Shown one piece after another: positions 4,313-54,055 of a stretch of DNA of 64,000 nt. The first letter of the stretch is position 1, and the number at the start of each line of letters is the position of its first letter. Under the pieces are notes generated by a model. That model saw nothing but the letters and a program-made list of their open reading frames with translations. It searched no databases and had not been told where the DNA came from. A program made the position numbers and the translations under genes. The stretch is from Gemmatimonadota bacterium (GTDB taxonomy: Bacteria; Gemmatimonadota; Gemmatimonadetes; Gemmatimonadales; GWC2-71-9), in contig JBEPVA010000002.1 in NCBI GenBank assembly GCA_041691295.1, positions 4,271 to 68,270 of the forward strand, in the 5' to 3' direction.

Positions 4313-4389
4313 GGAAGGTGAGAGGTGAGCGGTAAGAGGTGAGAGGGAACTGCCTCGGGCATCCCCTCTCCCATCTGCCATCTTCTCTC
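4313..4389. repeat. phased heptamer element: (GAGAGGT-like)x5, two spacer units, (TCCCNTC-like)x4
   Basis: GGAAGGT GAGAGGT GAGCGGT AAGAGGT GAGAGGG | AACTGCC TCGGGCA | TCCCCTC TCCCATC TGCCATC TTCTCTC, all in one 7-nt register. Fills the spacer between the zinc-ribbon gene start and the ntrC-like stop. Confidence 0.85.
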
Positions 4390-18080: not shown

Positions 18081-19674
18081 GTCGCCGGAACGACGGACCG
18101 TCGGACCGACGGTAGGATTGTCAGGCAGGCAACGGATTCACTCGCCCGCCTTGCCCGCCTCGGCCGTCCTGCCCTTCTCATCCGTCCTATCCGTCCTGCC
18201 CGTCTTATCCGTCCTGTTCGTCCTGCTGGCCACCACACTCCAGGCCCAGTCCAGGACCCTCGCCAAGCGCCTCGATTCCATCCTCGACGCGCCTGGCTTC
18301 AATCACCAGATCTGGGGCATCGCGCTGGTCGACAAGGGCGGCAAGCTGCTCTACGGCCGCAATGCCGACCGGCTGTTCATTCCAGCCAGCAACACCAAGC
18401 TGGTCGTCACCAGCAATGCCGTCGCTCGTCTGTCTCCCGACTTCAAGGTCAAGACCAGCCTCTACGCCACCGGCCCCCTCTCGGCTGGCGTTCTGGCGGG
18501 CGACCTGGTCCTCTACGGCCGCGGCGACCCGACCTGGAGCCGCCGCTGCTACGGCCTCGACACCACGGTGGCCGGCAACTGCGACACCGATCAGTTCGCC
18601 AAATTCCGCCAGCTGGCCACCGACCTCCGCACCGCCGGTGTGCGCGAAGTGCTCGGTGACCTGGTCGGTGATGGCAGCTACTTCGAGCCCCAGCTGATCA
18701 GCGGAGAGTGGTCGGCCTACGACCTCAACTGGTGGTACGCCGCGCCGGTCTCGGGACTCGGATTCAACGACAACAGCGTTGACCTGCACTGGAAGCCGGG
18801 TGCCAGCGAGGGCCAGCCCGCCGAGGTCGTCATGGATCCCGACCTCGGCGACCTGACCCTGGAAAACCGCAGTCGTACAGTCTCGGTCGGCGGCCAGACC
18901 ACCCTCGACTTCTTCCGCACCGCCGGTACCCTCGGTCTCTGGGCGGAAGGAGATGTGGCGCTCGACAACCGCGGCGGCACCGAGTCGTTCGCACTGCCGG
19001 ACCCCGCCATCTTTGCCGCCCGCGCCCTCCGCCAGGTGCTGGGCCAGGCGGGCATCACGATTCGCGGCACGGTGCGCTCCACTACCGATTCACTGCGGTA
19101 CCGCGCGGCCCGGGGCACCCCGCCACTGGCGGAAGTCGAATCCCGCCCCCTCAAGGAGTGGATCTTTCCGATCCTCAACACCAGCCAAAACTGGTTTGCC
19201 GAAATGCTGCTCAAGCAGCTGGGGCGCCAGTTCGGGGCCGCCGGTTCGTGGCAGAGCGGTACCGCGGTTGAACGGCGCTTCCTGATCGATTCGATGGGGG
19301 TGGACTCGGCCCAGATCTCGCTGGCCGACGGCTCGGGCTTGTCGGCCGACAACCTGGTGTCACCGCTGGCCTTTACCAGGGTGCTCAACTACATCCGGCG
19401 CAATCCGCACTTCGAGGTCTTCACCGCCGGTTTACCGCGTGCCGGACAGCCAGGCAGCCTGCGCAACCGCTTCAAGGGCACGGCCCTCGAGGGCCGAGTG
19501 GCGGCCAAGACCGGCACCATCAGCCTGGCCAGTACGCTGTCGGGCTACATCTTCACCGCGACCGGCGATACCCTCGTCTTCTCGATCCAGGCCAATCACC
19601 ACACCGCCACCGACCATGATATGAGGGCCCAGATCGACAGTCTGGTCGTGGCCATGGCGCGCCCGGCGCAATGA
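18046..19674 (+). CDS. dacB: D-alanyl-D-alanine carboxypeptidase/endopeptidase (PBP4, peptidase S13)
   Basis: ...LFIPASNTKLVV (SxxK), ...ADGSGLS..., ...AKTGTISLASTLSGYIF (KTG). The start is uncertain: ATG 18046 overlaps the permease by 35 nt, and an in-frame TTG at 18118 is an alternative. The signal-peptide region is encoded by nonamer repeats. Confidence 0.8.
   Translation: MQKRILECLLSKSPERRTVGPTVGLSGRQRIHSPALPASAVLPFSSVLSVLPVLSVLFVLLATTLQAQSRTLAKRLDSILDAPGFNHQIWGIALVDKGGKLLYGRNADRLFIPASNTKLVVTSNAVARLSPDFKVKTSLYATGPLSAGVLAGDLVLYGRGDPTWSRRCYGLDTTVAGNCDTDQFAKFRQLATDLRTAGVREVLGDLVGDGSYFEPQLISGEWSAYDLNWWYAAPVSGLGFNDNSVDLHWKPGASEGQPAEVVMDPDLGDLTLENRSRTVSVGGQTTLDFFRTAGTLGLWAEGDVALDNRGGTESFALPDPAIFAARALRQVLGQAGITIRGTVRSTTDSLRYRAARGTPPLAEVESRPLKEWIFPILNTSQNWFAEMLLKQLGRQFGAAGSWQSGTAVERRFLIDSMGVDSAQISLADGSGLSADNLVSPLAFTRVLNYIRRNPHFEVFTAGLPRAGQPGSLRNRFKGTALEGRVAAKTGTISLASTLSGYIFTATGDTLVFSIQANHHTATDHDMRAQIDSLVVAMARPAQ
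18087..18226. repeat. bipartite element: (GGACCGNC)x4 octamers ... (CCGTCCTNN)x7 nonamers, overlapping the dacB 5' end
   Basis: GGAACGAC GGACCGTC GGACCGAC GGTAGGAT (18087-18118). CCGTCCTGC CCTTCTCAT CCGTCCTAT CCGTCCTGC CCGTCTTAT CCGTCCTGT TCGTCCTGC (18164-18226). Confidence 0.85.
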
Positions 19675-22411: not shown

Positions 22412-22467
22412 GGTGGTTCCGGGTTTCAGGTTCCAGGTTCCAGGTTCCAGGTTCCAGGTTCCAAAGG
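22412..22467. repeat. tandem heptamer array (CCAGGTT)n, 4 perfect plus flanking degenerate units
   Basis: GGTGGTT CCGGGTT TCAGGTT CCAGGTT CCAGGTT CCAGGTT CCAGGTT CCAAAGG, in the divergent nitrilase/fprA region. Confidence 0.9.
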
Positions 22468-23993: not shown

Positions 23994-25154
23994 ATGCCCG
24001 TGACCCTGATCGACACCGCCCGCCTGACCCTGGCGCCGTTTACCCCGGAAGCCATCGACGCCCTCCTTCGTGGCGACCAGGCCCTGCTCCGCCAGCTGAC
24101 CAATGCCAACTTCCCGCTGCCACTGCGGCCGCCGCCGCTGATGGAATCGCTGCTGCCCCAGGTCAGGGATCAGGTCAGGGCCCAGCCCGACACGGCAGGT
24201 TGGTGGACCTGGCTCGCCATCCGTCGGGACACCCGCGATGTCGTTGGCGCGCTCGGCTTCGGTGGTCCGCCCGACGCTGAGGGTGCGGTCCTCCTGGGAT
24301 ATGCCACCTATGCCGAAGCTGACGGCCGCGGCTTCGGGTCCGAAGCAGTCGGAGCGCTCATTGCCTGGGCACTGGTAGAACCTGGCTGCCGACGGGTCTG
24401 CGCCAATATTCCGCCCGATAACACCGGTGCCCGCCGGGTGGCCGAAAAGGTCGGGATGCGGCTGGTCGGCAAGTTGTGGGACGAGGACATCGATGAGGTG
24501 CTGGTATACGCGGCCGGCAGCGGCGAGCCGGCCGGAGAACCGCCGCATCCGATGCCTCTTCCCGCCGGCTCCCCGACCCCGGCTCTTTCCGTGCCCGACA
24601 CCACCCACAACCGGATCTACACCAAGACTGGCGATCGGGGGGAGACCGGGCTGTTCGGCGGCGGGCGGGTGCCCAAGGATCATCCGCGGGTCTCGGCCTA
24701 TGGTGATGTCGACGAGCTCAACAGCGCGATCGGCGTCGCCCGGGCGGCACCACCCGCAACCCTGCACGACGAGCTGCTCCAGTCCATTCAACGCGACCTC
24801 TTTTCCATCGGTGGCCACCTGGCCACTCCCGATCCTGACCGGGTGCGCAAGGCGCTGGAAAAAGCCGAGCTCTCGGCCAGCCGCATCGCGGAGTTCGAGG
24901 CCGCCATGGACGCCGCCGACCGCGAGCTGCCGCCGCTGAGGGCATTCGTCCTGCCCGCCGGCACCCAGAAGGCTGCCGCACTGCACCTGGCCCGCACCAT
25001 CTGCCGTCGGGCCGAAAGAAATCTGGTCCACCTGTCGCATGAGGCCGCGGTGCCGGAGCTGTTCATCGTTTATCTCAACCGGCTGTCGGACCTGCTCTTC
25101 ACTCTGGCCCGGTTGGCCAATCGACGCAACGGCACCGGCGATGTGACCTGGTAG
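23994..25154 (+). CDS. fusion protein: N-terminal GNAT-like acetyltransferase domain + C-terminal PduO-type ATP:cob(I)alamin adenosyltransferase
   Basis: Residues ~1-175 are RimJ/RimL-like GNAT (..LTLAPFTPEA.., ..GRGFGSEAVGALIAWAL.., ..NTGARRVAEKVGM..), followed by a Pro-rich linker. Then IYTKTGDRGETGLFGGGRVPKDHPRVSAYGDVDELNS, the canonical PduO/MMAB N-terminus. Single open frame. An in-frame GTG at 24591 could give a separate PduO product. Confidence 0.75.
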   Translation: MPVTLIDTARLTLAPFTPEAIDALLRGDQALLRQLTNANFPLPLRPPPLMESLLPQVRDQVRAQPDTAGWWTWLAIRRDTRDVVGALGFGGPPDAEGAVLLGYATYAEADGRGFGSEAVGALIAWALVEPGCRRVCANIPPDNTGARRVAEKVGMRLVGKLWDEDIDEVLVYAAGSGEPAGEPPHPMPLPAGSPTPALSVPDTTHNRIYTKTGDRGETGLFGGGRVPKDHPRVSAYGDVDELNSAIGVARAAPPATLHDELLQSIQRDLFSIGGHLATPDPDRVRKALEKAELSASRIAEFEAAMDAADRELPPLRAFVLPAGTQKAAALHLARTICRRAERNLVHLSHEAAVPELFIVYLNRLSDLLFTLARLANRRNGTGDVTW

Positions 25155-25220
25155 GAAGACGGCGCAAGGAGGAAGGCGGAAGCGTGACAAAATGTTTTGC
25201 TCTCCTCCTTCCTCCCTCCT
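25151..25220. repeat. phased heptamer element: (GAAGGCG-like)x5 ... (CCYTCCT)x3
   Basis: GTAGGAA GACGGCG CAAGGAG GAAGGCG GAAGCGT | GACAAAA TGTTTTG | CTCTCCT CCTTCCT CCCTCCT in one register. GGAGGAAGG (25168-25176) is complementary to CCTTCCTCC (25207-25215). Confidence 0.8.
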
Positions 25221-25244
25221 GGTTCTTCGTTAGGTTGGACCCCC

Positions 25245-26384
25245 ATGCCGCCGATCACCGTCAATCACTCCCAGGGTTCGTACCAGGTTCACGTTGAGCC
25301 GGGATTGCTGCTGTCACTGCATTCGCTGCTGGTCGAACCGCTGGCGGGGCGGCGGCTGGCACTGATCACCGACGACACGGTGGCGGCCAGGTACGATGAA
25401 TGGACCAGCGCCACCACCGCCCACCGTGAACTGGGGGCCCGGGCCAGCGATGCCGGGATCCGCCTCAAGCCCAAGTTGCGACTGACCTTCCCGCCCGGCG
25501 AAAAATCCAAGACCCGCGAAACCTGGAGCCGGCTGTCCGACCAACTGCTGGCCGAAGGCTTCGACCGCAACAGCGCGATCGTGGCCCTGGGCGGTGGCGT
25601 GGTGGGTGACCTGGCCGGTTTCGTGGCGGCAACGTATCTCCGCGGATTGCCCTACGCGCAAGTGCCGACCACGCTGCTGGCCATGCTGGATGCCTCGGTC
25701 GGTGGCAAGGTGGCGGTGGACACTGCCCAGGGAAAGAACCTGATCGGCGCCTTTCATCCGCCGGCCATCGTGGTGGCCGATCCGCTGACGCTCCTGACCC
25801 TGCCCGAGCGCGAATACCGGGGAGGACTGGCCGAAGCGGTGAAGCACGGACTGATCGCGGATGCCAGCTATTTCGGCTGGATCGAAACCAGTGTCCGGCA
25901 GATCGGTGCCCGGGACCTGCGGGCCCTTGAGCGGCTGATCATCCGCAGCGTCGAGATCAAGGCCGCGGTGGTTGAGGCAGACGAGCACGAGCGGGGCCGC
26001 CGGGCGATTCTCAACGCCGGTCACACCGTCGCCCATGCCATCGAACAGGTCAGCGGCTACATCGTTCCACATGGTGAAGCGGTCTCGATCGGGCTGGTCG
26101 CGGAGTGCCGGCTGGCCGAGCAGCTCAGCATCCTGGCTGGAGGCACCGCGGACCGGGTGGCGGCGCTGCTGGCCAGATTGTCCCTCCCGATCTCGCTCCC
26201 GATACCCATGGCAGTGGCTGATCTGCTGCCGGCCATGGCCAGCGACAAGAAGAACCGAGACGGCCATATTCGGCTGGCCCTGCCCGCCACATTGGGGACC
26301 ATGCACCTCGGGTCCGGGCACTGGACCGTTCCGGTCGGTCCTGAGGATCTGGGGCCGGCACTTCGATCAATTGGAGCAACCTAA
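25245..26384 (+). CDS. aroB: 3-dehydroquinate synthase
   Basis: ..ALGGGVVGDLAGFVAATYLRGLPYAQVPTTLLAMLDASVGGKVAVD.., ..LNAGHTVAHAIE.. Start taken at ATG 25245 (MPPITVNH). Confidence 0.9.
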   Translation: MPPITVNHSQGSYQVHVEPGLLLSLHSLLVEPLAGRRLALITDDTVAARYDEWTSATTAHRELGARASDAGIRLKPKLRLTFPPGEKSKTRETWSRLSDQLLAEGFDRNSAIVALGGGVVGDLAGFVAATYLRGLPYAQVPTTLLAMLDASVGGKVAVDTAQGKNLIGAFHPPAIVVADPLTLLTLPEREYRGGLAEAVKHGLIADASYFGWIETSVRQIGARDLRALERLIIRSVEIKAAVVEADEHERGRRAILNAGHTVAHAIEQVSGYIVPHGEAVSIGLVAECRLAEQLSILAGGTADRVAALLARLSLPISLPIPMAVADLLPAMASDKKNRDGHIRLALPATLGTMHLGSGHWTVPVGPEDLGPALRSIGAT

Positions 26385-27547: not shown

Positions 27548-28213
27548 ATGGCCGCCCCGCTTGCCATTTTCCCCCTGGACGTCGTTCTCTTCCCCGGCGC
27601 CCTGCTTCCACTCCACATCTTCGAGCCGCGGTATCGCCAGCTGCTGGCGGACTGCCTCGAACGGCAACAGCCGTTCGGATTGATCCAGCCCGCCCCTGAC
27701 GGCCACCGCCCTGTTCCGGGCGGCGTCGGTGGCCTGGCCCGCGTCGAGCATCACGAGCAGCTCACCGATGGGCGCAGTCACATCCTGGTCCAGGGCACCG
27801 GACGATTCCGCCTCGATCATTACCTGGATTCCGACCGGCTCTATCCGGTGGCCCGGTTCACTGGCGTGGTCGATCGACAGGACTCGGCTCCCTCGGCCGC
27901 CAGCCTGGCCGAGCTCCGCCTGATCGGCGAGCGCTACCGCCAGGTCGCGGCGGCGCTGCACGACATCACCACCAGCTCGGGACCCTGGTCCGATGATGCC
28001 GAGCTGCTCTCCTTTCAGGTGGCGGCCGAACTGGAGCTCAGCGGCTCGACGCAGTGGCGGCTGCTGGCGCTCGACCGCACCGATGCCCGAGTCACGCAGC
28101 TGCTGGAAATCGCCCCCAGCCTGCTGGACGAACTGACCCTGCGGGCCGCGATTCACGTCGGAGCGCAGAGCAACGGCAAGGGCCACCGCCTGCCATCTTC
28201 GGGACCGCAATGA
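27548..28213 (+). CDS. LON N-terminal (substrate-binding) domain protein
   Basis: FPLDVVLFPGALLPLHIFEPRYRQLL is the hallmark start of the LON/PUA-like domain. 221 aa, with no AAA or protease domain. Confidence 0.8.
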   Translation: MAAPLAIFPLDVVLFPGALLPLHIFEPRYRQLLADCLERQQPFGLIQPAPDGHRPVPGGVGGLARVEHHEQLTDGRSHILVQGTGRFRLDHYLDSDRLYPVARFTGVVDRQDSAPSAASLAELRLIGERYRQVAAALHDITTSSGPWSDDAELLSFQVAAELELSGSTQWRLLALDRTDARVTQLLEIAPSLLDELTLRAAIHVGAQSNGKGHRLPSSGPQ

Positions 28214-29628
28214 ACGTCGACGCGGTGGCGCAATCCTTGTCCGGCATCGTGGGGCCGCGGTGGGTCCGGACCCGGCGAGCGGAGCTGGCCACCTTTCGCG
28301 CCGATGGCCTGCCAACCCATGAGTCGACTCCGGGACTGGTGGTACTGCCGGCCAGCCGGGCCGAGGTGATTGCCGTAATGCGCCAACTGGATCACGACGG
28401 GGTCTCGTTCGTGGCGCGGGGTGCTGGCACCGGGCTGTCCGGCGGGGCGCTGGCCGATCCCTCCACGGTCCTGCTCTCGCTGACCCGGCTCAACCGGATC
28501 CTGGGTATCGACGCGGTCAATCGCCGCGCCCGGGTCGAGCCCGGCGTTGTGAATGCCCGGCTTTCCGAAGCGGCTGCCCCGCATGGATTGTTCTACGCGC
28601 CGGATCCCTCCAGCCAGACCGCCTGCACGCTCGGCGGCAACGTGGCCGAGAATGCCGGCGGACCGCACTGCCTCAAGTACGGCGTCACCACCAACCATGT
28701 CGTGGCGCTCGAGGTCGTGCTGACCGACGGCAGCGTGGTCAGGCTCGGGTCGGCCCAGGGCGAATGCTGGGGCCCTGACCTGGTCGGCCTGCTGGTCGGC
28801 AGTGAGGGGATGTTTGGTGTCGTCACCGAGATCACGGTGCGGCTCGAGCCGATTCCGGTCAGCGTGCGCACCATTGCCGCCGACTTCATGGCATTGCGCG
28901 CGGCCGGTGAAGCGGTGTCGGCGATCATCGCCTCGGGCGTGGTACCCGCCGCGCTCGAGATGATGGATCAGTCGTGCCTCAAGGCGGTCGAGGCATCGAT
29001 CTACGCCACCGGCGCTCCGACCGACATCGCGGCGCTGTTATTGGTTGAGCTGGACGGGCCGACCGAATCGGTTGCGGCGGAGAGCGCGCTGGTAGAGGCC
29101 ATGCTCCGGCGGCACGGCGCCCGCGACATCCGCGTAGCGGTCCAGGCGTTGGACCGGGCCCGGCTCTGGCAGGGCCGCAAGAAGGCCTTCGGCGCGCTGG
29201 GCCGGCTGGCGCCCGATCTGGTGGTGCAGGACGCCGTGGTACCGCGCTCCGCACTGCCGGATATCCTCGACCGGATTGCGGCGATCCGTGACCGGCTCGG
29301 ACTGCAGATCAGCAATGTGTTCCATGCCGGCGACGGCAATCTCCATCCCTGTATCAGCTTCGACCGCCGTGACCCGGAGCTCAGCCAACGGGTCGAGCTG
29401 GCCAGCCGCGAAATCATGACGGCCTGCCTCGACGCCGGCGGCAGCCTGACTGGCGAGCACGGTGTCGGTGCCGACAAGATGGCCTACATGCCGGCTGCGT
29501 TTACCTCCGCCACCCTGCACGCGATGCTCGACGTGAAGCGGGTGTTCGATCCCGGCGGGCGGGCCAACCCCGGCAAGGTATTTCCTACTCACGTCTGCCG
29601 TGAATGGCGGCGAGGACACGCCGCATGA
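28210..29628 (+). CDS. glcD: glycolate oxidase subunit GlcD (FAD-linked oxidase)
   Basis: ATG 28210 overlaps the upstream stop (ATGA). ..FVARGAGTGLSGGA.. FAD-binding PCMH motif, ..GSLTGEHGVGADK.. C-terminal motif. Confidence 0.85.
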   Translation: MNVDAVAQSLSGIVGPRWVRTRRAELATFRADGLPTHESTPGLVVLPASRAEVIAVMRQLDHDGVSFVARGAGTGLSGGALADPSTVLLSLTRLNRILGIDAVNRRARVEPGVVNARLSEAAAPHGLFYAPDPSSQTACTLGGNVAENAGGPHCLKYGVTTNHVVALEVVLTDGSVVRLGSAQGECWGPDLVGLLVGSEGMFGVVTEITVRLEPIPVSVRTIAADFMALRAAGEAVSAIIASGVVPAALEMMDQSCLKAVEASIYATGAPTDIAALLLVELDGPTESVAAESALVEAMLRRHGARDIRVAVQALDRARLWQGRKKAFGALGRLAPDLVVQDAVVPRSALPDILDRIAAIRDRLGLQISNVFHAGDGNLHPCISFDRRDPELSQRVELASREIMTACLDAGGSLTGEHGVGADKMAYMPAAFTSATLHAMLDVKRVFDPGGRANPGKVFPTHVCREWRRGHAA

Positions 29629-30842
29629 GCGCCGCGCTGATCGCCCGGCTGGGAGAAATTGCGGGTCCGGCTTCGGTCGAGAAGGATCCGCGGGGGCTGC
29701 CGCGGGTGGCGCCGGATTCCGAGGAGGCGCTGGCGCTGGTCTGTCGTGAGGCGCATGCCCAGGGCTGGCGAATCCGGATCGAAGGCCGCGGCAGCTGGCT
29801 GCCGGCCGATGCCCCGGCCGACTTTGCACTGAGTACCCGATCGCTCGACCGGATCGTGGCGGTCAGCGCGGCCAATCTCGTGGCCACCATCCAGGCCGGT
29901 GCCAGTTTCGAGCGGGTGCGACGCGCGCTGCACGATGCGGGGCTCTGGCTGGCTATCGATCCGCCCGGCAATCCCGAGCGGACTCTCGGCTCGGTCGTGG
30001 CCACCAGTACCGCCGGTCCGCTGCGGCAGGGATTCGGTCCGGTGCGCGATCACGTGCTCGGGCTGAACGTGGTGACTGGTGATGGCCGGGTGCTGCAGGC
30101 CGGCGGCCGGGTGGTCAAGAATGTGGCGGGCTACGACCTCACCAAGCTGCAGGTCGGCGGCTTCGGCGCCTTTGGCATCGTGACCACCCTCCACCTTCGA
30201 TTGCGCGCCCTGCTGCCGGCCGATGCCACGCTGCTGCTGGCCGGGGCCCGCGACCGGCTCACCCTCGTCGCGCGCGAGCTGGTGGCCACCGGCATCCCAT
30301 ACGCGGCGCTGGAACTCTTTTCTCCCGCGCTGGCGGCCGGCGCCGAGTGGACGCTCGCGGTCCGGCTGATGGGAGCGCCCGCGGCGATCGAGCCGGAAGC
30401 GGCCCGGCTGATCGGCAGCACCAGCAATTCGTGGCATCGCCTGGCGCCCGATCGGGCCACCAGCTTCTGGAGCCAGGCTTCGCGAGGCATCCTGGCCGGC
30501 GCGGTCACCCTCCGACTCGGCACCGTGCTCGATGGGCTGGATGAACTGCTCGACCTGTTGCATCAACAGATCGGCGAGGGACTGGTGTCGGCCGGCGCCG
30601 GCAGCGGCAGCGTGCGCTGGTCGGGAACGGCGGGCGCGGAGCGGATTCGCGAACTGCGGCGGCTGACCGCGGCCCGGGAAATTCCCCTGACGCTCGAACG
30701 GGCGCCGTGGGAATTGCGCCGGCGCCTGGGGCACTTCGGCGCGTACCGCGAGGGGGTAGGTCGGCTGGTCGGCCGGCTGCGCGAAGCGTTCGACCCCACC
30801 GAGCGGCTGCAGGTCGCGATCGAAGGGTCCGATGGCGACTGA
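29625..30842 (+). CDS. glcE: glycolate oxidase FAD-binding subunit GlcE
   Basis: FAD_binding_4-like sequence (..IEGRGSWL.., ..VKNVAGYDLTKL..). Positioned between glcD and glcF. ATGA overlap with glcD. Confidence 0.8.
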   Translation: MSAALIARLGEIAGPASVEKDPRGLPRVAPDSEEALALVCREAHAQGWRIRIEGRGSWLPADAPADFALSTRSLDRIVAVSAANLVATIQAGASFERVRRALHDAGLWLAIDPPGNPERTLGSVVATSTAGPLRQGFGPVRDHVLGLNVVTGDGRVLQAGGRVVKNVAGYDLTKLQVGGFGAFGIVTTLHLRLRALLPADATLLLAGARDRLTLVARELVATGIPYAALELFSPALAAGAEWTLAVRLMGAPAAIEPEAARLIGSTSNSWHRLAPDRATSFWSQASRGILAGAVTLRLGTVLDGLDELLDLLHQQIGEGLVSAGAGSGSVRWSGTAGAERIRELRRLTAAREIPLTLERAPWELRRRLGHFGAYREGVGRLVGRLREAFDPTERLQVAIEGSDGD

Positions 30843-32145
30843 GATCGAGCCGGCCCGGGGCTTCCGGGCGCTCGATCCCTGTGTCCACTGCGGATTCTGT
30901 CTCCCCGCCTGTCCGACATACCTCGCCACCGGTGATGAAGCCGACAGCCCGCGCGGGCGCATCGTGCTGATGCGTGCCCTCGAGCGGGGCGAACTACCCG
31001 CTGACGATCCCGCCCTCAATGAACATCTCGATGCCTGCCTCGGCTGCCGAGGCTGCGAGCCGGTCTGCCCGGCCGGGGTCGGCTACGGCCAGGGCATCGA
31101 AGCCGCGCGCACCCTGCTCGCCGCCCGCCGAGGGCTGCCGGTCAAGGCCCGGGCCGTGCTCGCCGTATTCAGGTACCGGTGGCTGTGGCGGCCGCTGCTC
31201 ACGATGGCGCGGTGGTTTCGGGAGACCGGCCTGGCCCGGAGACTCTCCGGCAGAGACCGGCTCGGATTCAGCATGGCAATGCTGGCCAGCTCACGTGAAG
31301 GATCGTCGGGCCGTTGGACCGTCGGACCATCGGAGGGTTCGCACTCAGCGATCGACCCGCCCGTCTCGTCCGTCTCGCCCGCCACATCCGTCTTACCCGT
31401 CCTACCCGTCTCGGCTACCGTCGCGCTGTTTACCGGCTGCGTGATGAATGAGTTGTTCGGTCACGTCCATGCCGCCACCCGGCGCACACTGCAGGCCAAT
31501 GGATACCGGGTCATCGAAGTGTCGGGCCAGGTCTGCTGCGGAGCGCTGCATGCCCATGCCGGTGATCATTCAGCCGCCGCCGCCCTGGCGCAACGCAACC
31601 TGGCCGCCTTCGACGGACAGGCCGACTTCATCGTGATCAACAGCGCCGGATGCGGCGCGCTGCTCAAGGAGTACGGCCACCTGGTCGAAGGAGCGGCGGC
31701 GACCGACTTCGGATCCCGGGTCAAGGACGTCTCCGAGCTGCTGGCCGAGCGGGGGCCGAGGATCGGCGCGGCGCTGGACATCGATGTCGCCTACGACGCA
31801 CCCTGTCACCTGCAGCACGCCCAGCACATCCAGTTCCCGCCGCTGGCGGTGCTCGGCGCAATTCGTGGCACCCGAGTGCGTCTGCTGTCCGGTTCCGACC
31901 GGTGCTGCGGCAGCGCCGGGATCTACTCGATGCTCGAGCCGGGGATGTCCCGTGCGGTCCTGGCCGACAAGATCGCGACCATCGCAGAGGCCGTACCACG
32001 GCCCTCGGTCGTGGCCACCGGCAACCCCGGGTGCCTGATGCAAATCGGGGCCGGGCTGATGGTCGATGGCCTGCCGATCGAAGCGCGGCATCCGGTGGAG
32101 CTGCTTGACGAGTCGTATCGGAGGGCAGGATTTTACCGGGCGTGA
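30832..32145 (+). CDS. glcF: glycolate oxidase iron-sulfur subunit GlcF (carries an in-frame repeat-derived insertion)
   Basis: CVHCGFCLPACPTY and CLGCRGCEPVCPAGV (2x 4Fe-4S motifs). Two CCG-type Cys-rich domains (..QVCCGA.., ..DRCCGSAG..). The linker region ..SSREGSSGRWTVGPSEGSHSAIDPPVSSVSPATSVLPVLPVSA.. is encoded by the repeat element at 31300-31414. Confidence 0.85.
   Translation: MATEIEPARGFRALDPCVHCGFCLPACPTYLATGDEADSPRGRIVLMRALERGELPADDPALNEHLDACLGCRGCEPVCPAGVGYGQGIEAARTLLAARRGLPVKARAVLAVFRYRWLWRPLLTMARWFRETGLARRLSGRDRLGFSMAMLASSREGSSGRWTVGPSEGSHSAIDPPVSSVSPATSVLPVLPVSATVALFTGCVMNELFGHVHAATRRTLQANGYRVIEVSGQVCCGALHAHAGDHSAAAALAQRNLAAFDGQADFIVINSAGCGALLKEYGHLVEGAAATDFGSRVKDVSELLAERGPRIGAALDIDVAYDAPCHLQHAQHIQFPPLAVLGAIRGTRVRLLSGSDRCCGSAGIYSMLEPGMSRAVLADKIATIAEAVPRPSVVATGNPGCLMQIGAGLMVDGLPIEARHPVELLDESYRRAGFYRA
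31300..31414. repeat. bipartite element inside glcF: (GGNCCNTC)x5 octamers ... (CCGTCYNNN)x6 nonamers
   Basis: GGATCGTC GGGCCGTT GGACCGTC GGACCATC GGAGGGTT (31300-31339). CCGTCTCGT CCGTCTCGC CCGCCACAT CCGTCTTAC CCGTCCTAC CCGTCTCGG (31361-31414). Confidence 0.85.
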
Positions 32146-32218
32146 GACGTGACAGGTGAGGGGTGACAGGGAACAACCCCCTCTTACTTTTTACCTCTCA
32201 CGCTCTGCTGGTTCCCCT
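32142..32218. repeat. phased heptamer element: (GTGASAS)x4 ... pyrimidine-rich heptamers
   Basis: GTGAGAC GTGACAG GTGAGGG GTGACAG GGAACAA CCCCCTC TTACTTT TTACCTC TCACGCT CTGCTGG TTCCCCT. Begins on the glcF TGA and runs to the next ATG. Confidence 0.8.
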
Positions 32219-32230
32219 TATGTTTCCCCC

Positions 32231-32893
32231 ATGCCTCAATCGATCCTGTTCGACTTCAACGGCGTCATCGCCGATGACGAGCGGCTGCACTGCGATGCCC
32301 TGATCGCGACCCTCGACACCCTCGGCTTTCCGCTCGACCGCGACACCTACTACCGGGATTATCTCGGATTCGATGACCGGGCGTGCTTCCGGCATGCCTT
32401 TGAGCGGATGGGTCGCCGGGTCGACGACCGATCGATCGAAGCGGTGATTGCGGCCAAGGGTGCCCGCTACGAGGCAGCCATGTCGGCCTCGATGGCGCTG
32501 GTCCCTGGTGCCATCGATTTTGTTCGGCGGGCCCACGCTGATGGGATCAGGCTGGCCATCGTCTCCGGTGCGCTGCGCCGGGAAATCGAGCTGGTGCTGG
32601 CGCATACCGGGCTGACGCCGTGCTTCTCGGCCATCGTGGCCGCCGAAGATGTGCCGGCGTGCAAACCGGATCCGGCGGGGTTCTGCCTCGGCCTGGTCCG
32701 TCTGGCGGCCGACCCGCGTCACACGGTCGTGATCGAGGATTCGCTGCCCGGGCTCAAGGCCGCTCGCGCCGCCGGACTGCGGTGCGCCATGCTGACCACG
32801 TCCCACCCGGTCAGCGAGCTGACCGGGGCCGACCTGATCTGGGACAACCTGTCCGGCCGCACCCCCTCGGAACTGCCGTGGGCCACAGCATGA
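32231..32893 (+). CDS. HAD-superfamily hydrolase (beta-phosphoglucomutase / phosphoglycolate phosphatase-like)
   Basis: MPQSILFDFNGVIADDE (DxN/DG motif I), ..IVSGALRREI.., ..KPDPAGF.., ..VVIEDSLPGLKAARAAG.. (motif IV). Confidence 0.8.
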   Translation: MPQSILFDFNGVIADDERLHCDALIATLDTLGFPLDRDTYYRDYLGFDDRACFRHAFERMGRRVDDRSIEAVIAAKGARYEAAMSASMALVPGAIDFVRRAHADGIRLAIVSGALRREIELVLAHTGLTPCFSAIVAAEDVPACKPDPAGFCLGLVRLAADPRHTVVIEDSLPGLKAARAAGLRCAMLTTSHPVSELTGADLIWDNLSGRTPSELPWATA

Positions 32894-35223: not shown

Positions 35224-36660
35224 ATGACGCAGCCTAGAACGCTGGGAGAATTGAAGCAGAGCCGGTGGGCCGAGCCCGAGTTGCGCGGGCGGTCGGTGCG
35301 GGATGAACTCCGGGCCAACCTGCTGATCCGCCTGGAGCAGGGAAAGACGCTGTTCCCGGGCATCGTCGGGTACGAAGACAGCATCGTTCCGCAGCTGACC
35401 AATGCCCTGCTGGCCCGGCACCATTTCATCCTGCTCGGATTGCGTGGCCAGGCCAAGACCCGGCTGCTGCGCCAGCTGACCACACTGCTGGATGACGCGA
35501 TTCCAGCCATCGCCGGCAGTGAGGTCAACGACGACCCGTTTGCCCCGGTGTCCAAATTCGGCCGGGAGCGGATCGAGGAATGCGGCGATGCCACCGCCAT
35601 CACCTGGCTGCCCAGGCAGCAGCGGTATGTCGAGAAGCTGGCCACGCCTGACGTGACCATCGCCGACCTGATCGGCGATCTCGACCCGATCAAGGCCGCC
35701 CGCGGCGGTCATGTGCTGGCCGACGAGCTGACCATGCACTTCGGCCTGCTGCCCCGGGCCAATCGCGGAATTTTCGCGGTCAACGAGCTGCCTGACCTGA
35801 GCGGCAAGGTGCAGGTCGGCCTGTTCAACATCATGCAGGAGGGAGACGTCCAGATCAAAGGCTATCCCGTCCGGCTGCAGCTCGACGTCCTGCTGGCCTT
35901 TACCGCCAACCCCGAGGACTACACCGCGCGGGGCAAGATCATCACTCCGCTCAAGGACCGAATCGGGTCCGAGATTGTCACCCACTACCCCCGCACCGTT
36001 GACCTCGGCATGGCCATCACGGCGCAGGAGGCCTGGGTCAAGCGCGGCACCCGCAGCATCCTGGTGCCCGAAATTGTCCGGGAGACGGTGGAACGCATTG
36101 CCTTTGAGGCACGGGAAGACAAGCGGATCGATCGCCGGTCCGGGGTCAGCCAGCGGCTGCCGATTTCGGTGCTGGAACACGCCGTGTCGAGCGCCGAGCG
36201 CCGCAGCATCCTGTTCAAGGAGCCGGACGCCGTGGTCAGGATCGCGGATATTTACGCGGCGGTGCCGTCGATGACCGGCAAGCTCGAACTGGAATACGAG
36301 GGAGAGCTGCAGGGCGCCGACCCGATCGCGCGGGACCTGATCCGGCGGGCTGCCGGCGGAACGCTGTCGGAGCGGGTGGACGATCACCAGCTCGACGGAA
36401 TCGTGGCCTTTTTCGACCAGGGCGGCGCACTCAAGATCGCGGGAGATGAGCGGACCGAGCTCTGCCTGCGAGGCTTTACCGTGATCCCGGGGCTGCTCGA
36501 CGTGGTGCGGAAGAACAATCTGGCGCCGGGCGGATCACCGGGCGAAACCGTGGCAGGGGCGGAGCTGGTGCTTGAGGGATTGGCAGCCCAGAAACGGATT
36601 ACCCGGTCCGATGACCTCGGCTATACCAAGCTCAGGCGCGGCAGGGGGATGGAAAACTAG
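35224..36660 (+). CDS. ChlI/BchI-like AAA+ ATPase (Mg-chelatase subunit I family, non-chelatase context)
   Basis: ..FPGIVGYEDSIVPQLTNALLARHHFILLGLRGQAKTRLLRQL.. (Walker A GLRGQAKT), ..GIFAVNELPDL.. (Walker B-like). AAGGAG Shine-Dalgarno 10 nt upstream. Confidence 0.75.
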   Translation: MTQPRTLGELKQSRWAEPELRGRSVRDELRANLLIRLEQGKTLFPGIVGYEDSIVPQLTNALLARHHFILLGLRGQAKTRLLRQLTTLLDDAIPAIAGSEVNDDPFAPVSKFGRERIEECGDATAITWLPRQQRYVEKLATPDVTIADLIGDLDPIKAARGGHVLADELTMHFGLLPRANRGIFAVNELPDLSGKVQVGLFNIMQEGDVQIKGYPVRLQLDVLLAFTANPEDYTARGKIITPLKDRIGSEIVTHYPRTVDLGMAITAQEAWVKRGTRSILVPEIVRETVERIAFEAREDKRIDRRSGVSQRLPISVLEHAVSSAERRSILFKEPDAVVRIADIYAAVPSMTGKLELEYEGELQGADPIARDLIRRAAGGTLSERVDDHQLDGIVAFFDQGGALKIAGDERTELCLRGFTVIPGLLDVVRKNNLAPGGSPGETVAGAELVLEGLAAQKRITRSDDLGYTKLRRGRGMEN

Positions 36661-36778
36661 GAGAGAGGAGAGAGGAGAGAGGAGAGAGGATCGTGGCGGA
36701 ACAAAATCACCGGGAGTTCGACACGGCAAGTCGAGCTCCCTTTTGGTGTGCAGCGACCCCTCTCCTCTCTGCTCTCTG
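36660..36778. repeat. (GGAGAGA)x4 perfect heptamers, loop containing a terminator, then complementary CT-rich arm
   Basis: GGAGAGA x4 at 36660-36687. CCCCTCTCCTCTCTGCTCTCTG at 36757-36778. Confidence 0.85.
36712..36744 (+). terminator. rho-independent terminator after the ChlI-like ATPase gene
   Basis: GGGAGTTCGAC-ACGGCAA-GTCGAGCTCCC (one mismatch) followed by TTTT at 36741-36744. Confidence 0.7.
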
Positions 36779-36888
36779 CGCGGTTGCGATGGTCCGTCCC
36801 CAAGCATTCCTCTTGACTTCCGACAAAAGCCGCCGCATCCTCCTCTCGATATCCGACACTAGTCATCACTTCCGATCCGGTCTCGCCG

Positions 36889-40645: not shown

Positions 40646-40688
40646 GCCTTGACGATACCGGTGATAGGAGGAGTTCGTAAGAGTCGGA

Positions 40689-40806
40689 GATGGAAGACCG
40701 GAGATAGGAGACAGGAAATCGGAGGCAGAAAATATCGGCTGGGCGCCTGCAGCGTGGTGCCTGCCCCGCTGCCCCCAGCCCCCCAGCCCCCCAGCCCCCC
40801 TGCCCC
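40689..40806. repeat. (GAYNGGA)x7 purine heptamers followed by (CCCCCCAG)n octamers
   Basis: GATGGAA GACCGGA GATAGGA GACAGGA AATCGGA GGCAGAA AATATCG (40689-40737). GCCCCCAG CCCCCCAG CCCCCCAG CCCCCCTG CCCCC (40771-40806), ending at the MFS stop codon. Confidence 0.85.
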
Positions 40807-42021
40807 CTATCTCGCCAGTTCCACAATCCGCCTGGTCCCCACCAGCGTCACGACGATACAGATCACGCCGCCAAGGCCGACTGCCGTCGCGACGCCGAGG
40901 GTTTCGGCCACCCAGCCGACGAGGAGATTACCGATCGGTGCCAGGCCCAGGACCACCAGCGAGTAGAAGCCCATGACCCGGCCGCGCAGATGGTCGGGTG
41001 TCCTGGTCTGCAGCAGGGTATTGGTCATCACGTTATTGAGGATCATTCCGGCCCCGGCGGCGGCGAGCAGCACGACCGCCGACGGGAAATGCGCCACCAG
41101 ACCCAGGCAGGCCAGCGCCGCCCCGAACGCGAAGCCTGCCCAGCGAATGATCCCGGCGTTCTTCTTGTCGCCGGAGAGCGCGGCCATCGAGAGCGCGCCG
41201 CACGCCGCGCCGACACCAAGTGCCGACATCAGGCCGCTGTAGCCTGTAGCGCTGGCGTGGAGGACATCGCGGGCGTAGACCGGCAGCATGGTGACGAACG
41301 AAAAGCCGAAGATGCTGAAGGCGCCGGTCACGATCAGCAATGTCCGGGGCAATTCGGCCTGCCTGAGGTAGGTCAGGCCGCCGAGCAGGTCACGGTCCTG
41401 CTTCACTTCACGCGCCCCGGGCGCCACCGGCCGCATCTTGAACAGCGCTACCACCACGGCCAGGTAACTCAGGGAGTTGGCGAAGAAACAGGCCTTGAGT
41501 CCGACCCCCGCGATCAGCGCTGCCGCGATCAGCGGCCCCACGATCCGGGAGCTGTTGAACACCAGCGAGTTGAGCGCGATGGCATTCATGACGTCCGGCC
41601 GGTCGACCATTTCCATCAGGAAGGCCTGGCGGATCGGCACCTCGAAGGCGGTCAGGGTCCCCAGCGAAAAGGCCAGGACCATGAGCCAGTGCAGCGTGAT
41701 GATATTGAAGGCGGTGAGGGTGGCGAGGATCAGCGACTCGATCAGCATCAGGCTCTGCAGCAGGATCAGTGCCTTGCGCCTCGGCACCCGGTCGGCCAGG
41801 ACCCCGCCGTAGAGTGTGAACAGCAGAATCGGCAGCGACTCGAGAAAGGCCACCACCCCGACCAGCAGGGGGCGCGGTGAGAGCTGCACCACCAGCCACC
41901 CCTGCGCCACCACCTGCATCCAGGTGCCGCACAGCGACAGGAACTGGCCGGTCAGGAACAGCCGGAAGCTGGGAGAGCGAAGCGCGCCAAAGGCAGGGGG
42001 CCGGAGCGGGAGGGAGGACAC
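40807..42021 (-). CDS. MFS transporter (EntS/MFS_3-like)
   Basis: 404 aa, ~12 predicted hydrophobic helices. ..LTGQFLSLCGTWMQVVAQGWLV.. and ..GGVLADRVPRRK.. (MFS motif A-like). GTG start. Confidence 0.8.
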   Translation of the reverse strand: MSSLPLRPPAFGALRSPSFRLFLTGQFLSLCGTWMQVVAQGWLVVQLSPRPLLVGVVAFLESLPILLFTLYGGVLADRVPRRKALILLQSLMLIESLILATLTAFNIITLHWLMVLAFSLGTLTAFEVPIRQAFLMEMVDRPDVMNAIALNSLVFNSSRIVGPLIAAALIAGVGLKACFFANSLSYLAVVVALFKMRPVAPGAREVKQDRDLLGGLTYLRQAELPRTLLIVTGAFSIFGFSFVTMLPVYARDVLHASATGYSGLMSALGVGAACGALSMAALSGDKKNAGIIRWAGFAFGAALACLGLVAHFPSAVVLLAAAGAGMILNNVMTNTLLQTRTPDHLRGRVMGFYSLVVLGLAPIGNLLVGWVAETLGVATAVGLGGVICIVVTLVGTRRIVELAR

Positions 42022-42059
42022 GGGACAATGCTAGACGAGCGGTGGCACCGGGGGAAGTT

Positions 42060-42212
42060 GGGATGGCGGGATGGGGAGAAGTCGGGATGGGGGGAATGCT
42101 TGCGAAAAGACGCCGCACGGACGGCAATCCGAACCGGCTTCGGATCCTGGTGTATAGTTAGGAGAGTGGGATCGGGACGGAACGATTCCCCCCATCCCCT
42201 CATCCCCACATC
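42060..42212. repeat. octamer-phased G-rich arm / C-rich arm with a 14-bp perfect inverted repeat
   Basis: GGGATGG at 42060, 42068 and 42084. GGGATGGGGGGAAT (42084-42097) is the exact reverse complement of ATTCCCCCCATCCC (42185-42198). The right arm reads CCCCCCAT CCCCTCAT CCCCACAT. Confidence 0.85.
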
Positions 42213-42224
42213 CGAAATCGAAGC

Positions 42225-43503: not shown

Positions 43504-43620
43504 GAGGTCGGAGTTGGGGGTGGGAATCACACCGGATCCTTGGTCCCGGAAGCCAATTCTCCTTCGAGGACCTGACTCCTGACTCCCAACTCACGACTCC
43601 CGACTAACGACTAACGACCC
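43504..43620. repeat. (GAGKTSG)x3 ... (CTGACTC/ACGACTM)x7 heptamer element between convergent vWA and M48 genes
   Basis: GAGGTCG GAGTTGG GGGTGGG (43504-43524). CTGACTC CTGACTC CCAACTC ACGACTC CCGACTA ACGACTA ACGACCC (43572-43620). The arms are imperfectly complementary (shared GAGTTGGG). Confidence 0.85.
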
Positions 43621-52138: not shown

Positions 52139-52140
52139 AC

Positions 52141-52265
52141 GGACAGGCGGACAGGCGGACAGGCGGACAGGCGGACAGGCGGACAGGCGGACCGAAACTA
52201 ATTAACGGTTCGCCATCTCGTCGCTCGTCGCTCGTCGCTCGTCTCTCGTCTCTAGTCTCTCGTCT
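52141..52265. repeat. (GGACAGGC)x5 perfect octamers ... (TCGTCKC/TAGTCTS)x8 heptamers
   Basis: GGACAGGC x5 at 52141-52180. TCGTCGC x3, TCGTCTC x2, TAGTCTC, TCGTCTG, TAGTCTG at 52210-52265. Central AACGGTTCGCCATC. Confidence 0.9.
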
Positions 52266-52288
52266 GTAGTCTGCCTACCTTCTCACCC

Positions 52289-54055
52289 ATGCTCCCGTCC
52301 GACTCCGCTGTCCCGCTGGCCGGCAGCGGTGAGCCCGCCGCCGCTCTGCTGCAAGCCGCCATCACGGTCGGCCTGGCCGTTCTTTGTGCCCAGCTTTATC
52401 GCCGCTATCAGAAGCCCTACCTCCGCTGGTGGGCCGTGGCCTGGTCGCTGTACGCGCTGCGGTTGGCAGCCATCATCACCTTCCTCCGCACCGGTGGCAG
52501 GGGCTGGCTGTACTGGCACCAGGCCATCACCGGCTGGACGGCGCTGGTGCTGCTCTGGACGGCGCTGGTCTTCTCCCGACAGCCCCGCTGGCGATCATGG
52601 TATCTCATCCTCGTACTGTTCCCGCCGGCCTGGGCCTTCGTGGCGATCTACGGTCTCGATCGCTTCATGCTGGTCGCGGTGCCCGCGGTGGTCTTTCTCA
52701 GCATCGCCACCCTCTGGACCGGCTGGGTTTTCTATCGCGATCACCGCGATACCGGTTCCACCGGTTCAGCGATCCTGGCCGGCGCATTCTGTCTGTGGGG
52801 CTTGCACCATCTCGACTATCCGCTGCTCCGGGCCCGCGGGGCGCTCAATCCCTGGAGCTATTACCTCGATATCTGTTTCCTGCTCGCGGTCGCCACCGGT
52901 CTGCTGACCCTGGTGATCGAAGACGCCAGGCGCGGGCTGGCGGCGCTGTCGGCGCTGTCGGATGGATTGGCCGAGGCGGCCGATGGCAATCCGGTCGATG
53001 CGCTGCTGGCGGGTGCGGCTTCGTTGCGCGGGGTCCGCGGCAGCGCCATGTACAGCGGCGAGGAGCGGCGATTCGTGCGCGGCACCGGCGCCTGCGCCAG
53101 CTGGGTGGGGCAGGTTCCGGCCGGCGCCGCCGCCGATGCGGTCGACGAAGCGCTGGCGTCCGGGCGGCCCAAGCTGTCAGCCGGCTGGAGTGCCGCCGAT
53201 GCCCCGGGCGGCCCCTACCCCTGGGCCGCTGTACTGCCGGTACTCCAGGGGCAGGCTCCGGCTGGAGCACTGGTGATCGTGAGCGCGGCCCGCGATCCCT
53301 TCACCGCGGTGGATGAGCGGTTCCTCCGCGCCTTTGGCCGCCAGGCCGGCGCTGCGCTGGAGCGGGCCGATCTGGCCCTCCGTCTCCGCCAGCGCACCGC
53401 CGATCTCGAGCGCCTCTCGGCCCGGATGGTCCGCCAGCACGAGGAGGAACGGCGGCGGCTTTCCCTCGAACTCCACGACGAAACGGCCCAGGTCTTTGCG
53501 GCCGTGAAGATGCAACTTGGTGTGGCCCGCGAGCAGGCTGGACCGGAACTGGCCAGCCGGCTTGACCGCTCCCTCGAACTGGTCGATACCGGCCTGCACA
53601 GCATCCGACGGGTGACCGACAGCCTGCGGCCCGCCCTGCTCGATGACATCGGGCTGGTGCCAGCCCTGCGTTCCCTGGTGGCGGACTTCCGGGAGCAGAG
53701 CGGTCTCAGCATCGTGGTGCAGGTGCCCGACCACGCCCCTATCCTCAATGCCGATGCGGACGTCGCCCTGTTCAGGGCCCTGCAGGAAGGGCTGGCTAAC
53801 GTGGCCCGCCACGCCGCGGCCGAAGAAGTCCGGGTTGAACTCACGACCGATGGTACCGACGTGACCCTGCGCATCCGGGACGATGGCGTGGGTCTCGATC
53901 TCGGCGTCCTCGCCGGCAAGGCGCGGCAGGGACACGCCGGGTTGGTCGGGATGCGGGAACGGGTCGAGACGCTCGGTGGCGCCGTGGATATCGTCAGTGT
54001 GCCGGGCGGCGGGTTGCAACTCTCGATCCGGCTGCCGGAAGTGAGCGCCGCATGA
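52289..54055 (+). CDS. sensor histidine kinase, HisKA_3 (NarX/LiaS-type) with N-terminal multi-TM sensor and GAF-like domain
   Basis: Six or so N-terminal helices, then ..RRRLSLELHDETAQVF.. (HisKA_3 H-box), ..ALQEGLANVARHA.., ..DDGVGL.., ..GLVGMRERVETLGG.. Confidence 0.85.
   Translation: MLPSDSAVPLAGSGEPAAALLQAAITVGLAVLCAQLYRRYQKPYLRWWAVAWSLYALRLAAIITFLRTGGRGWLYWHQAITGWTALVLLWTALVFSRQPRWRSWYLILVLFPPAWAFVAIYGLDRFMLVAVPAVVFLSIATLWTGWVFYRDHRDTGSTGSAILAGAFCLWGLHHLDYPLLRARGALNPWSYYLDICFLLAVATGLLTLVIEDARRGLAALSALSDGLAEAADGNPVDALLAGAASLRGVRGSAMYSGEERRFVRGTGACASWVGQVPAGAAADAVDEALASGRPKLSAGWSAADAPGGPYPWAAVLPVLQGQAPAGALVIVSAARDPFTAVDERFLRAFGRQAGAALERADLALRLRQRTADLERLSARMVRQHEEERRRLSLELHDETAQVFAAVKMQLGVAREQAGPELASRLDRSLELVDTGLHSIRRVTDSLRPALLDDIGLVPALRSLVADFREQSGLSIVVQVPDHAPILNADADVALFRALQEGLANVARHAAAEEVRVELTTDGTDVTLRIRDDGVGLDLGVLAGKARQGHAGLVGMRERVETLGGAVDIVSVPGGGLQLSIRLPEVSAA

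Follow-up and report, generated by a model that had tools for sequence, protein, structure and literature searches.

A probable translated copy of a dispersed paired-repeat family in the glcF linker of a Gemmatimonadota bacterium

Several described families of short bacterial repeats bear on the question of how repeat DNA comes to lie within a protein-coding gene. Rickettsia palindromic elements (RPEs) insert in frame into protein-coding genes, as summarised in PMC10969869, which cites Ogata et al. Convergent pairs of GGGAATC heptamer arrays number 70-75 per genome in Xanthomonas, and GGGGA(T/C)T repeats are found in Nostoc (Rehm et al. 2015, PMC4692102); the Xanthomonas pairs lie near stop codons and upstream of open reading frames (ORFs), between same-direction genes, and have been reported as under-represented within coding sequence (PMC4692102). 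Among long prokaryotic simple sequence repeats (SSRs) with units of 5-11 nt, and among the short tandemly repeated repetitive (STRR) sequences of cyanobacteria, heptamers are commonest and slippage has been proposed, with units that are multiples of three occurring most often in coding regions, according to Mrazek et al. (2007), as summarised in PMC4679880. Here we describe an element at positions 31300-31413 of a 64-kb stretch of Gemmatimonadota DNA (contig JBEPVA010000002.1; hereafter the window), which is predicted to be read through as part of GlcF, the iron-sulfur subunit of glycolate oxidase/dehydrogenase. We consider it likely that this element belongs to a dispersed family of paired SSRs that changes by slippage, and that it is tolerated and translated here. 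Window features whose coordinates are given below with two dots are on the + strand.

The glcF coding sequence (30832..32145, 437 aa) was identified from the ORF list, Pfam and the names of its homologues, which read ‘glycolate oxidase iron-sulfur subunit’. Its product has the N-terminal 2x[4Fe-4S] ferredoxin-like domain of a GlcF protein (Fer4_8, 4Fe-4S dicluster, residues 14-83, E 2.7e-14), followed by two cysteine-rich CCG domains (two stretches, from residue 197, E 1.4e-25), and the Cys motifs are invariant among 38 aligned GlcF homologues. In an alignment of 84 GlcF loci (that of the window and 83 related ones), conserved anchors delimit a 42-aa linker, S154-A195 (31291..31416), which reads ..SREGSSGRWTVGPSEGSHSAIDPPVSSVSPATSVLPVLPVSA.. 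and holds the element. PDB sequence matches, to HdrC over residues 13-116 and to HdrB from residue 197, place this linker at the junction of an HdrC-like ferredoxin module and an HdrB-like CCG module, which is where an initial annotation, made from the sequence alone, had put the encoded peptide. An AlphaFold2 model built with the 38 homologues has a mean pLDDT of 84, while residues 154-194 are coil with block means of 55, 44 and 57, and with values below 50 for residues 167-182. Because of this low-confidence coil and its position at the HdrC/HdrB junction, the linker is predicted to be a disordered tether at the module boundary; the structure prediction that had been proposed as a check for a loop thus returned one.

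Within this linker, Tandem Repeats Finder (TRF), with which all repeat arrays were called, delimits two neighbouring head-to-tail arrays whose units fall within ~5-11 nt, the anatomy of a paired tandem repeat. The first arm (31300..31334) contains 4.4 copies of the octamer GGACCGTC and is translated GSSGRWTVGPSE; a spacer, GGTTCGCACTCAGCGATCGACCC, follows (31335..31357, from the sequence itself); and the pyrimidine-rich second arm (31358..31413) has a period of 9/18 nt, with a core of CCGTC plus 4 nt, and is translated PPVSSVSPATSVLPVLPVS. Together they occupy codons 157-194 of the 437. The arms share CCGTC as a direct rather than an inverted core, their purine fractions are 0.52 and 0.27, and the octamer GGACCGTC has no G run longer than 2, most units of the paired elements described here being likewise devoid of GGG runs. 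Folding of 31290-31425 gave no excess RNA structure for this copy (z +1.2), and a candidate RNA hairpin in the window element was rejected (z +1.18 and +1.23). The ‘intergenic-type’ label of the initial annotation therefore stands only in part: the element is an in-frame, DNA-level repeat belonging with the dacB family described below, but its first arm is not purine-rich and it has no hairpin potential, and the window copy has lost, or never possessed, the stem-forming complementarity of intergenic copies.

The element shares features with each of the described systems. Like RPEs, it is a repeat of non-coding type, predicted to be translated in frame in a conserved metabolic gene at a position compatible with the fold, and it would belong to a family with several copies per genome. 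RPEs, however, are ~150 bp long, share a consensus within the family, encode a conserved peptide and inhabit reduced intracellular genomes, whereas the glcF element consists of 7-10-nt tandem units that vary by locus and lineage, apparently by unit slippage, lacks palindromic arms, and resides in a free-living, GC-rich Gemmatimonadota host. The paired elements considered here resemble those of Xanthomonas in their tandem units of ~7 nt, in the succession of a G-rich array and its C-rich counterpart, in a length that varies between related genomes while the type is preserved, and in polarity, with five purine-then-pyrimidine pairs and no reverse pair in the window under a strict purine/pyrimidine filter. 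In contrast to the intergenic setting of the Xanthomonas pairs at start and stop codons, the location in glcF is intragenic; the reverse-complementary second array that characterizes those pairs is absent from the window glcF element, but present in most of the intergenic pairs tested in the window and in the linkers of ten relatives; and, unlike Xanthomonas with its one consensus unit per genome, the units here vary by locus, with copies translated in the glcF linker and in the dacB signal peptide. We thus assign the glcF element to neither RPEs nor Xanthomonas pairs, because it has no palindromic body, no evident shared consensus and no intergenic location. The use of heptamers, apparent slippage and the preference for 3n units inside coding regions are shared with SSRs of 5-11 nt; those are usually single direct arrays, and the paired build, the recurrence at one site across an order and the covariation of arms do not appear in the published accounts compared. 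Finally, short structured repeats at gene ends in operons, one with a possible RNA stem-loop after a stop codon (32147-32210), recall repetitive extragenic palindromes (REPs) and bacterial interspersed mosaic elements (BIMEs), but these are by definition extragenic and follow a consensus common to the species, whereas no shared consensus is evident here and the glcF copy is intragenic. REPs are linked to RAYT transposases. Rfam 15 returned zero family matches across the whole window.

The kinship of the glcF element is clearest with a sibling at dacB, the gene for a PBP4-type D-Ala-D-Ala carboxypeptidase (18118..19674, Peptidase_S13), and these two are the clearly related copies within the 64-kb window. 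The first arm of the sibling (CGGACCGA/GGACCGTC, period 8, 18086..18112, TRF) lies between the stop codon of an ABC permease (BPD_transp_1, ending at 18080) and the dacB start, for which homologue P0121, annotated with the N-terminus MSGRSRIHSP.., indicates a TTG at 18118; the Peptidase_S13 domain begins at residue 72 of the ORF opening at 18046. Translation of the second arm (18164..18226, period 9/18/27, CCGTCCTNN, TRF) gives ..SSVLSVLPVLSVLFVLL.., which forms the hydrophobic core of DacB's signal peptide and precedes the Peptidase_S13 domain. At this gene, then, a 9-nt tandem repeat (SVLSVLPVLSVL) writes a signal-peptide core, and an 8-nt repeat occupies the 5′ untranslated stretch just upstream. 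The glcF and dacB elements align locally with a score of 56, their second arms agreeing at 42/53 positions, where the maximum over 2945 random windows is 31, and a gapped alignment is collinear through first arm, spacer and second arm, with weak similarity in the spacer; both elements use GGACCGNC. The initial annotation had reported an ORF that stays open through an element of the same build as that near dacB, an exact 13-mer shared by the two and a 15/16 match between their second arms, and all three observations were borne out: the 13-mer GGACCGTCGGACC occurs exactly in the window only at 18095 and 31316, and the second-arm 16-mer has its 15/16 match at 18200 and, allowing up to three mismatches, six matches that all fall inside the two elements, where 0.49 would be expected.

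The arrangement of a period-8 arm upstream and a period-9 coding arm at dacB is found also in L210, L211 and L214, making four lineages with the window (leader coordinates 18086-18226 in the window, 1460-1610 in L210, 930-1090 in L211 and 10017-10109 in L214). The contig of L214, which encodes P0125, ends 5 kb past dacB, before glcF, and informs on the leader layout only. L210 comes from assembly GCA_039930765.1, which is also the source of the glcF locus L001 described below. Relative to L210, the second arm of the window differs by 9-nt and 18-nt indels, and (S/T-V-L)n N-termini recur among many Gemmatimonadales DacB homologues.

A further kinship proposed initially, with an intergenic element at 52141, holds for build but not for sequence. 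This looser relative (52140..52272, TRF) comprises 6.6 copies of CGGACAGG at period 8 (52140-52192), a spacer, and 7-8 copies of TCTCGTC at period 7 (52216-52272), with a fold z of -2.1 to -2.4. Its alignment to the glcF element is not significant (score 20-22, background 16 +/- 2.6), and it resembles that element only in build and in its CGGAC core; sequence homology between the two was thus rejected, the shared unit type being seen only through a glcF orthologue, L085. Specifically, the unit GCGGACAG of the 52140 array is found also in L085 and in the dacB leaders of L211 and L214.

Comparison with relatives shows orthologous copies of the glcF element. A relative with a 90%-identical GlcF is represented by three independent assemblies with identical linkers (L001-L003), and the element of L001 is that of the window minus 18 nt, or two units, in the second arm. 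Between the window and this relative, differences per codon position are 0.11/0.22/0.19 in the linker and 0.05/0.02/0.25 in the rest of the gene, so that the linker changes without codon-position bias; 69% of the amino acids in the linker, but 93% of those in the remainder of GlcF, match the closest relative. On this contrast the linker is drifting while the enzyme is under purifying selection. More distantly, L084-L086 (72-75% GlcF identity) have a recognizably orthologous element with a first-arm core of CGGAC, and L085, at 75% identity, shares an exact 19-mer, CTCGTCCGTCTCGCCCGCC, and has a second arm that likewise repeats every 9 nt; the first arm of L085 is three copies of GCGGACAG. Outgroup linkers (Acidobacteriota, Chloroflexota, NC10, Bacillota) measure 19-26 aa, mostly 19-23, many Gemmatimonadaceae have 19 aa with a recurring ..Y.P.G.G.RG pattern, and Gemmatimonadota overall are hypervariable at 18-62 aa. 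The statement in the initial annotation that this linker is short in other GlcF proteins and that E. coli GlcF is about 30 aa shorter also proved sound, as the E. coli protein has 407 aa and the 30-aa alignment gap coincides with the window linker. The frame is single and open through the linker in all 84 loci. The element is thus an insertion relative to the outgroups, as had been suspected, but one that is old and shared by relatives, neither recent nor private to this genome. Since the gene is already fused in outgroup phyla, where its linker is a plain one of 19 aa, an origin of the linker as the relic of an intergenic spacer left by gene fusion was rejected.

These observations can be accommodated by a simple scheme. 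The family would be built of an octamer array (core CGGAC) that is followed, beyond a spacer, by a pyrimidine-rich array (core CCGTC), and would be common in this Gemmatimonadales lineage of soil bacterium, mostly between genes or spanning gene starts. In glcF, a copy would have come to lie in the part of the protein that accepts almost any sequence, the disordered tether that connects the two modules, HdrC-like ([4Fe-4S]) and HdrB-like (CCG), and translation would turn it into a spacer of 42 aa where the ancestral one had ~19 aa. Thereafter replication slippage may have added and removed whole repeat units, with selection purging only frame-breaking or stop-gaining variants; units of this family have no stop codon in any sense frame. 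The sequence was probably also exchanged with sibling elements of the same genome and may be refreshed from them, and in relatives the complementarity of the arms could be kept either by templated correction within the palindrome or by selection on the stem. On this evidence the glcF element probably has no specific role for the enzyme.

If only frame-preserving variants survive in ORFs, as was proposed initially, array periods should differ between coding and non-coding DNA, and they do. When all arrays from the window and the GlcF loci that have 2.5 or more copies and a period of 6-12 are classed as coding or not by open frame and the third-position GC of their flanks, the period is divisible by three in 22/29 coding arrays vs 17/62 non-coding ones (odds ratio 8.3, Fisher p = 2.6e-5); periods 7 and 8 predominate in non-coding arrays, and metagenome loci selected by the octamer show the same trend toward 3n periods in coding arrays. 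Yet the rule is not strict: of the seven coding arrays with a non-3n period, four lie in GlcF linkers, among them the period-8 first arm of the window element itself, and GlcF linkers of relatives contain arrays of period 7, 8 and 10. Nor is the associated claim likely that the pyrimidine arm was re-phased to 9 nt in glcF: this period is shared by L001, L085 and the dacB leaders, and was therefore probably inherited rather than having arisen there. As the 9-nt and 18-nt indels show, a 9-nt period lets the array change length with its frame intact.

The GlcF linker hosts paired repeats elsewhere in the Gemmatimonadales. In relatives, purine-rich tandem units, a short loop and complementary pyrimidine-rich units all lie in frame in the linker, with units of GGGAGGGATG (period 10) in L032, ATGGAAAG (period 8) in L020, GGAACGC (period 7) in L018, GGCGGATC (period 8) in L016, GGCGGGAG (period 8) in L087 and GAGAGGTCG (period 9) in L088; the linkers of L015, L009, L008 and L005 have the same paired build. 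Ten GlcF linkers are strong in-frame hairpins (z -2.6 to -9.2, -35 to -77 kcal/mol), where the z-scores derive from a mononucleotide shuffle and are therefore somewhat generous, the top ten still standing far from the rest. Their GlcF proteins are only 54-79% identical to each other outside the linker and, with the window clade, represent at least five deep lineages. In the clade of L015, L018 and L020 the units differ (TGCGGAAT, CGCGGAAC, GATGGAAA) but each retains its own complementary arm, and 5/18 consensus pairs have changed on both sides, that is, in compensatory fashion. These linker hairpins have few G-U pairs, and a sense-strand preference was not found. The window clade is without excess structure (z +1.0 for the window, +2.0 for L001 and -0.4, -0.4 and 0.0 for L084-L086). 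Elsewhere, in Longimicrobiales and other deep Gemmatimonadota (L040, L041, L060, L062, L065), linkers of 36-62 aa are of low complexity and rich in G/A/P/R/S; these have neither the paired-repeat build nor excess RNA structure, and look like a different route to expansion at the same GlcF site.

Related arrays are also dispersed beyond these two genes. The octamer unit GGACCGTC builds arrays in many metagenome contigs. Since about half of the matches to the first-arm pattern in a metagenome scan were chance occurrences in GC-rich coding DNA, we used only those with at least three GGAC units at period 8, of which there are 52 distinct stretches; ~10 of these have an inverted second arm, (GTCCGACN)n, also of period 8, and sit upstream of start codons or flank signal-peptide hydrophobic cores. 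Hairpins of the form (GTCGGACN)4 - loop - (GTCCGACN)4 were seen in unrelated genes (L110, L144, L148 and L172, as well as L103, L109, L166 and L205): in four of them the loop encodes a signal-peptide hydrophobic core, sometimes with the start codon in the loop, while others lie just upstream of a start codon. A full-text literature search on repeat elements in Gemmatimonadetes/Gemmatimonadota found no description of such elements.

The peptide GGQADRRTGG is common to GlcF P0004 and DacB P0125, and in P0056, P0035 and P0096 the peptides of the linker (TAERRNGGT..AVPPFRR or RRYG..AVG) recur in what is annotated as an N-terminal extension of the same GlcF. The same units and peptides at two loci thus point to exchange or duplication between copies, and exchange between copies within one genome is suggested by these sequences. 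As a gauge of within-genome spread, the 12-mers that each GlcF linker shares with other parts of its locus were uninformative, the flanks being only 3 kb. The long annotated N-terminal extensions of GlcF (P0035, P0056, P0096, P0107) correspond to a translated upstream repeat element, by which gene callers appear to have been misled.

The window itself contains at least six further pairs of this build (4316-4383, 25153-25220, 32147-32210, 36659-36779, 42050-42213 and 52140-52272). In these a purine-rich tandem repeat of 7-8 nt precedes a pyrimidine-rich one, the unit being particular to each pair, and a seventh pair (40685-40807) has non-complementary arms. Intergenic pairs mostly fold with z -2.0 to -6.0, two weaker ones reaching -1.2 and -1.7, and in 4/6 pairs between co-directional genes the transcribed strand folds better than the opposite one. 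One of them, a paired heptamer hairpin read from the sequence (GTGACAG/GTGAGGG .. CTCTTAC/CTCTCAC, 32147..32210, fold z -3.45), follows directly 3′ of the glcF stop codon and fills the gap to the start of a HAD hydrolase at 32231 (HAD domains from 32231). On its 5′ side, glcF is preceded by ORFs with FAD_binding_4 and FAD-oxidase_C domains (28186-29628, glcD-like, and 29604-30842, glcE-like), and is thus the final gene of a glcD-glcE-glcF run whose order matches E. coli glcDEF and relatives. The window has a GC content of 66.5%, and its closest protein relatives come from Gemmatimonadota/Gemmatimonadales metagenome-assembled genomes.

Hairpins just after the glcF stop codon occur with other units in L084, L086 and L088 (GAGCAGG/CTGCTCC; GGTGAGA/TCTCACC), and in L084 and L086 the first arm after glcF is read through as a C-terminal tail, ..SEQGAGSREQ. 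Unpaired heptamer arrays are present near gene ends: seven copies of GGTTCCA at 22415-22463, GACTCCC/ACTAACG at 43574-43618 and four copies of GCTAACG at 60595-60622. Where a start codon follows a pyrimidine arm (32218-32233, 52275-52291 and 25232-25247; also L084 and L088), it is preceded by a C/T-rich stretch, for example TTTCCCCCATG or CTTCTCACCCATG, in which a Shine-Dalgarno motif is not visible; in the purine arms that follow the preceding stop codon, by contrast, Shine-Dalgarno-like words (AGGAG, GGTGA, GGAGG) abound.

Several observations weigh against the element being simply a tolerated, slipping copy of an intergenic-type family. With a first arm of period 8 that is not purine-rich, the window copy departs from the typical intergenic build. 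The case for exchange between loci rests on L085 compared with L211 and L214, which come from different metagenomes and need not belong to one organism, and the sole contig with both dacB and glcF (L212) has a 22-aa glcF linker without an element. Paired elements also persist at one site across deep lineages with compensatory changes, which could reflect selection at the RNA or DNA level in relatives. The main rival is a working RNA stem inside glcF, one that would pause ribosomes between the two Fe-S modules and could so aid co-translational folding or cluster insertion, or that would serve as a site for processing or stabilizing the mRNA. The ten relatives whose very stable in-frame hairpins span the whole linker, the complementarity retained while units change in L015, L018 and L020, and the intergenic window copies that beat their shuffles and, between co-directional genes, favour the transcribed strand in most cases are all as such a function would predict. 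But neither the window copy nor its closest relatives have excess structure, a plain 19-aa linker suffices in many Gemmatimonadota and the linkers of all outgroups are likewise plain, the scarcity of G-U pairs and lack of sense-strand preference fit a symmetry at the DNA level equally well, and templated correction in quasi-palindromes could preserve complementary arms without selection. We therefore regard an RNA-level function in glcF as quite unlikely; the window copy gives it no support, while the relatives may still do so.

Transposition of a discrete mobile element into glcF from a master copy, for example one of the dacB-leader type, with the present copy as an in-frame survivor in the manner of a miniature inverted-repeat transposable element (MITE) or RPE, would explain why the glcF element is collinear arm by arm with that at dacB in the same genome, why several lineages have elements of the same unit at two loci per genome, and why related octamer hairpins are dispersed over many metagenome contigs. 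Yet the glcF copy has no terminal inverted repeats, and no target-site duplication was seen by eye at the linker borders (31291 and 31416), where a close-relative empty site that would define the borders is lacking; the window elements mostly have their own unit rather than a shared consensus; and no linked transposase turned up, without a systematic search for one. Moreover, as the glcF element is orthologous and has diverged gradually through relatives at 72-90% identity, no recent jump need be assumed, and we find this origin unlikely. That there is no DNA element at all, and that glcF and dacB resemble one another through selection for Ser/Val/Leu/Pro-rich peptides in the preferred codons of a GC-rich genome, is very improbable. 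Both second arms do place the unit in one and the same reading frame (TCC GTC CTA / CCC GTC CTA, giving S/P-V-L), and (S/T-V-L)n is a recurring and presumably selected signal-peptide core in DacB homologues, but at dacB the exact 13-mer is part of the first arm, which lies upstream of the start codon and is untranslated, a period-8 array cannot mirror a peptide repeat, the glcF linker is without protein-level constraint, outgroup linkers have no such segment, and a signal-peptide-like core would be useless to a cytoplasmic Fe-S subunit. Least credible of all is an assembly or frameshift artefact in the metagenome-assembled genome: repeats are prone to mis-assembly and the window GlcF protein comes from a single record (one member, one contig), but the frame is identical on both sides with both flanks conserved in frame, the orthologous element is identical in the three independent assemblies of the 90% relative, and comparable in-frame elements occur in dozens of unrelated assemblies.

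A tolerated, translated copy of a slipping paired-repeat family thus remains our preferred explanation of the window element, but the wider pattern, with in-frame hairpin repeats in one linker across an order, an arm that serves as a signal-peptide core and hints of homogenization, is not an ordinary one. It might be taken further, to a self-homogenizing Gemmatimonadales hairpin-repeat family acting as a source of coding sequence, whose copies exchange units and have colonized linkers, leaders and tails, in which the 9-nt pyrimidine arm would provide an (S/T-V-L)n signal-peptide core, as in DacB, and the glcF hairpin of relatives would serve, between the Fe-S modules, for programmed pausing of translation or for processing; that all of this holds together seems doubtful.

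The elements described here represent non-coding-type repeat DNA becoming protein sequence in a free-living, GC-rich bacterium, and paired 7-10-nt arrays in a conserved redox enzyme add a third kind of in-frame repeat to the Rickettsia palindromic elements and mobile inverted-repeat elements. In practical terms, such elements make proteins longer and more variable in length, cause gene callers to extend N- and C-termini falsely, and are probably places where assembly and length errors concentrate in metagenome-assembled genomes. The GlcF linker of the Gemmatimonadales amounts to a natural experiment in tether variation (18-62 aa, of any composition), in coding hairpins that are tolerated or used, and in repeat homogenization. 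The dacB sibling, for its part, hints that repeat arms can supply a working signal-peptide core, which, if confirmed, would be a concrete route for the birth of leader peptides.

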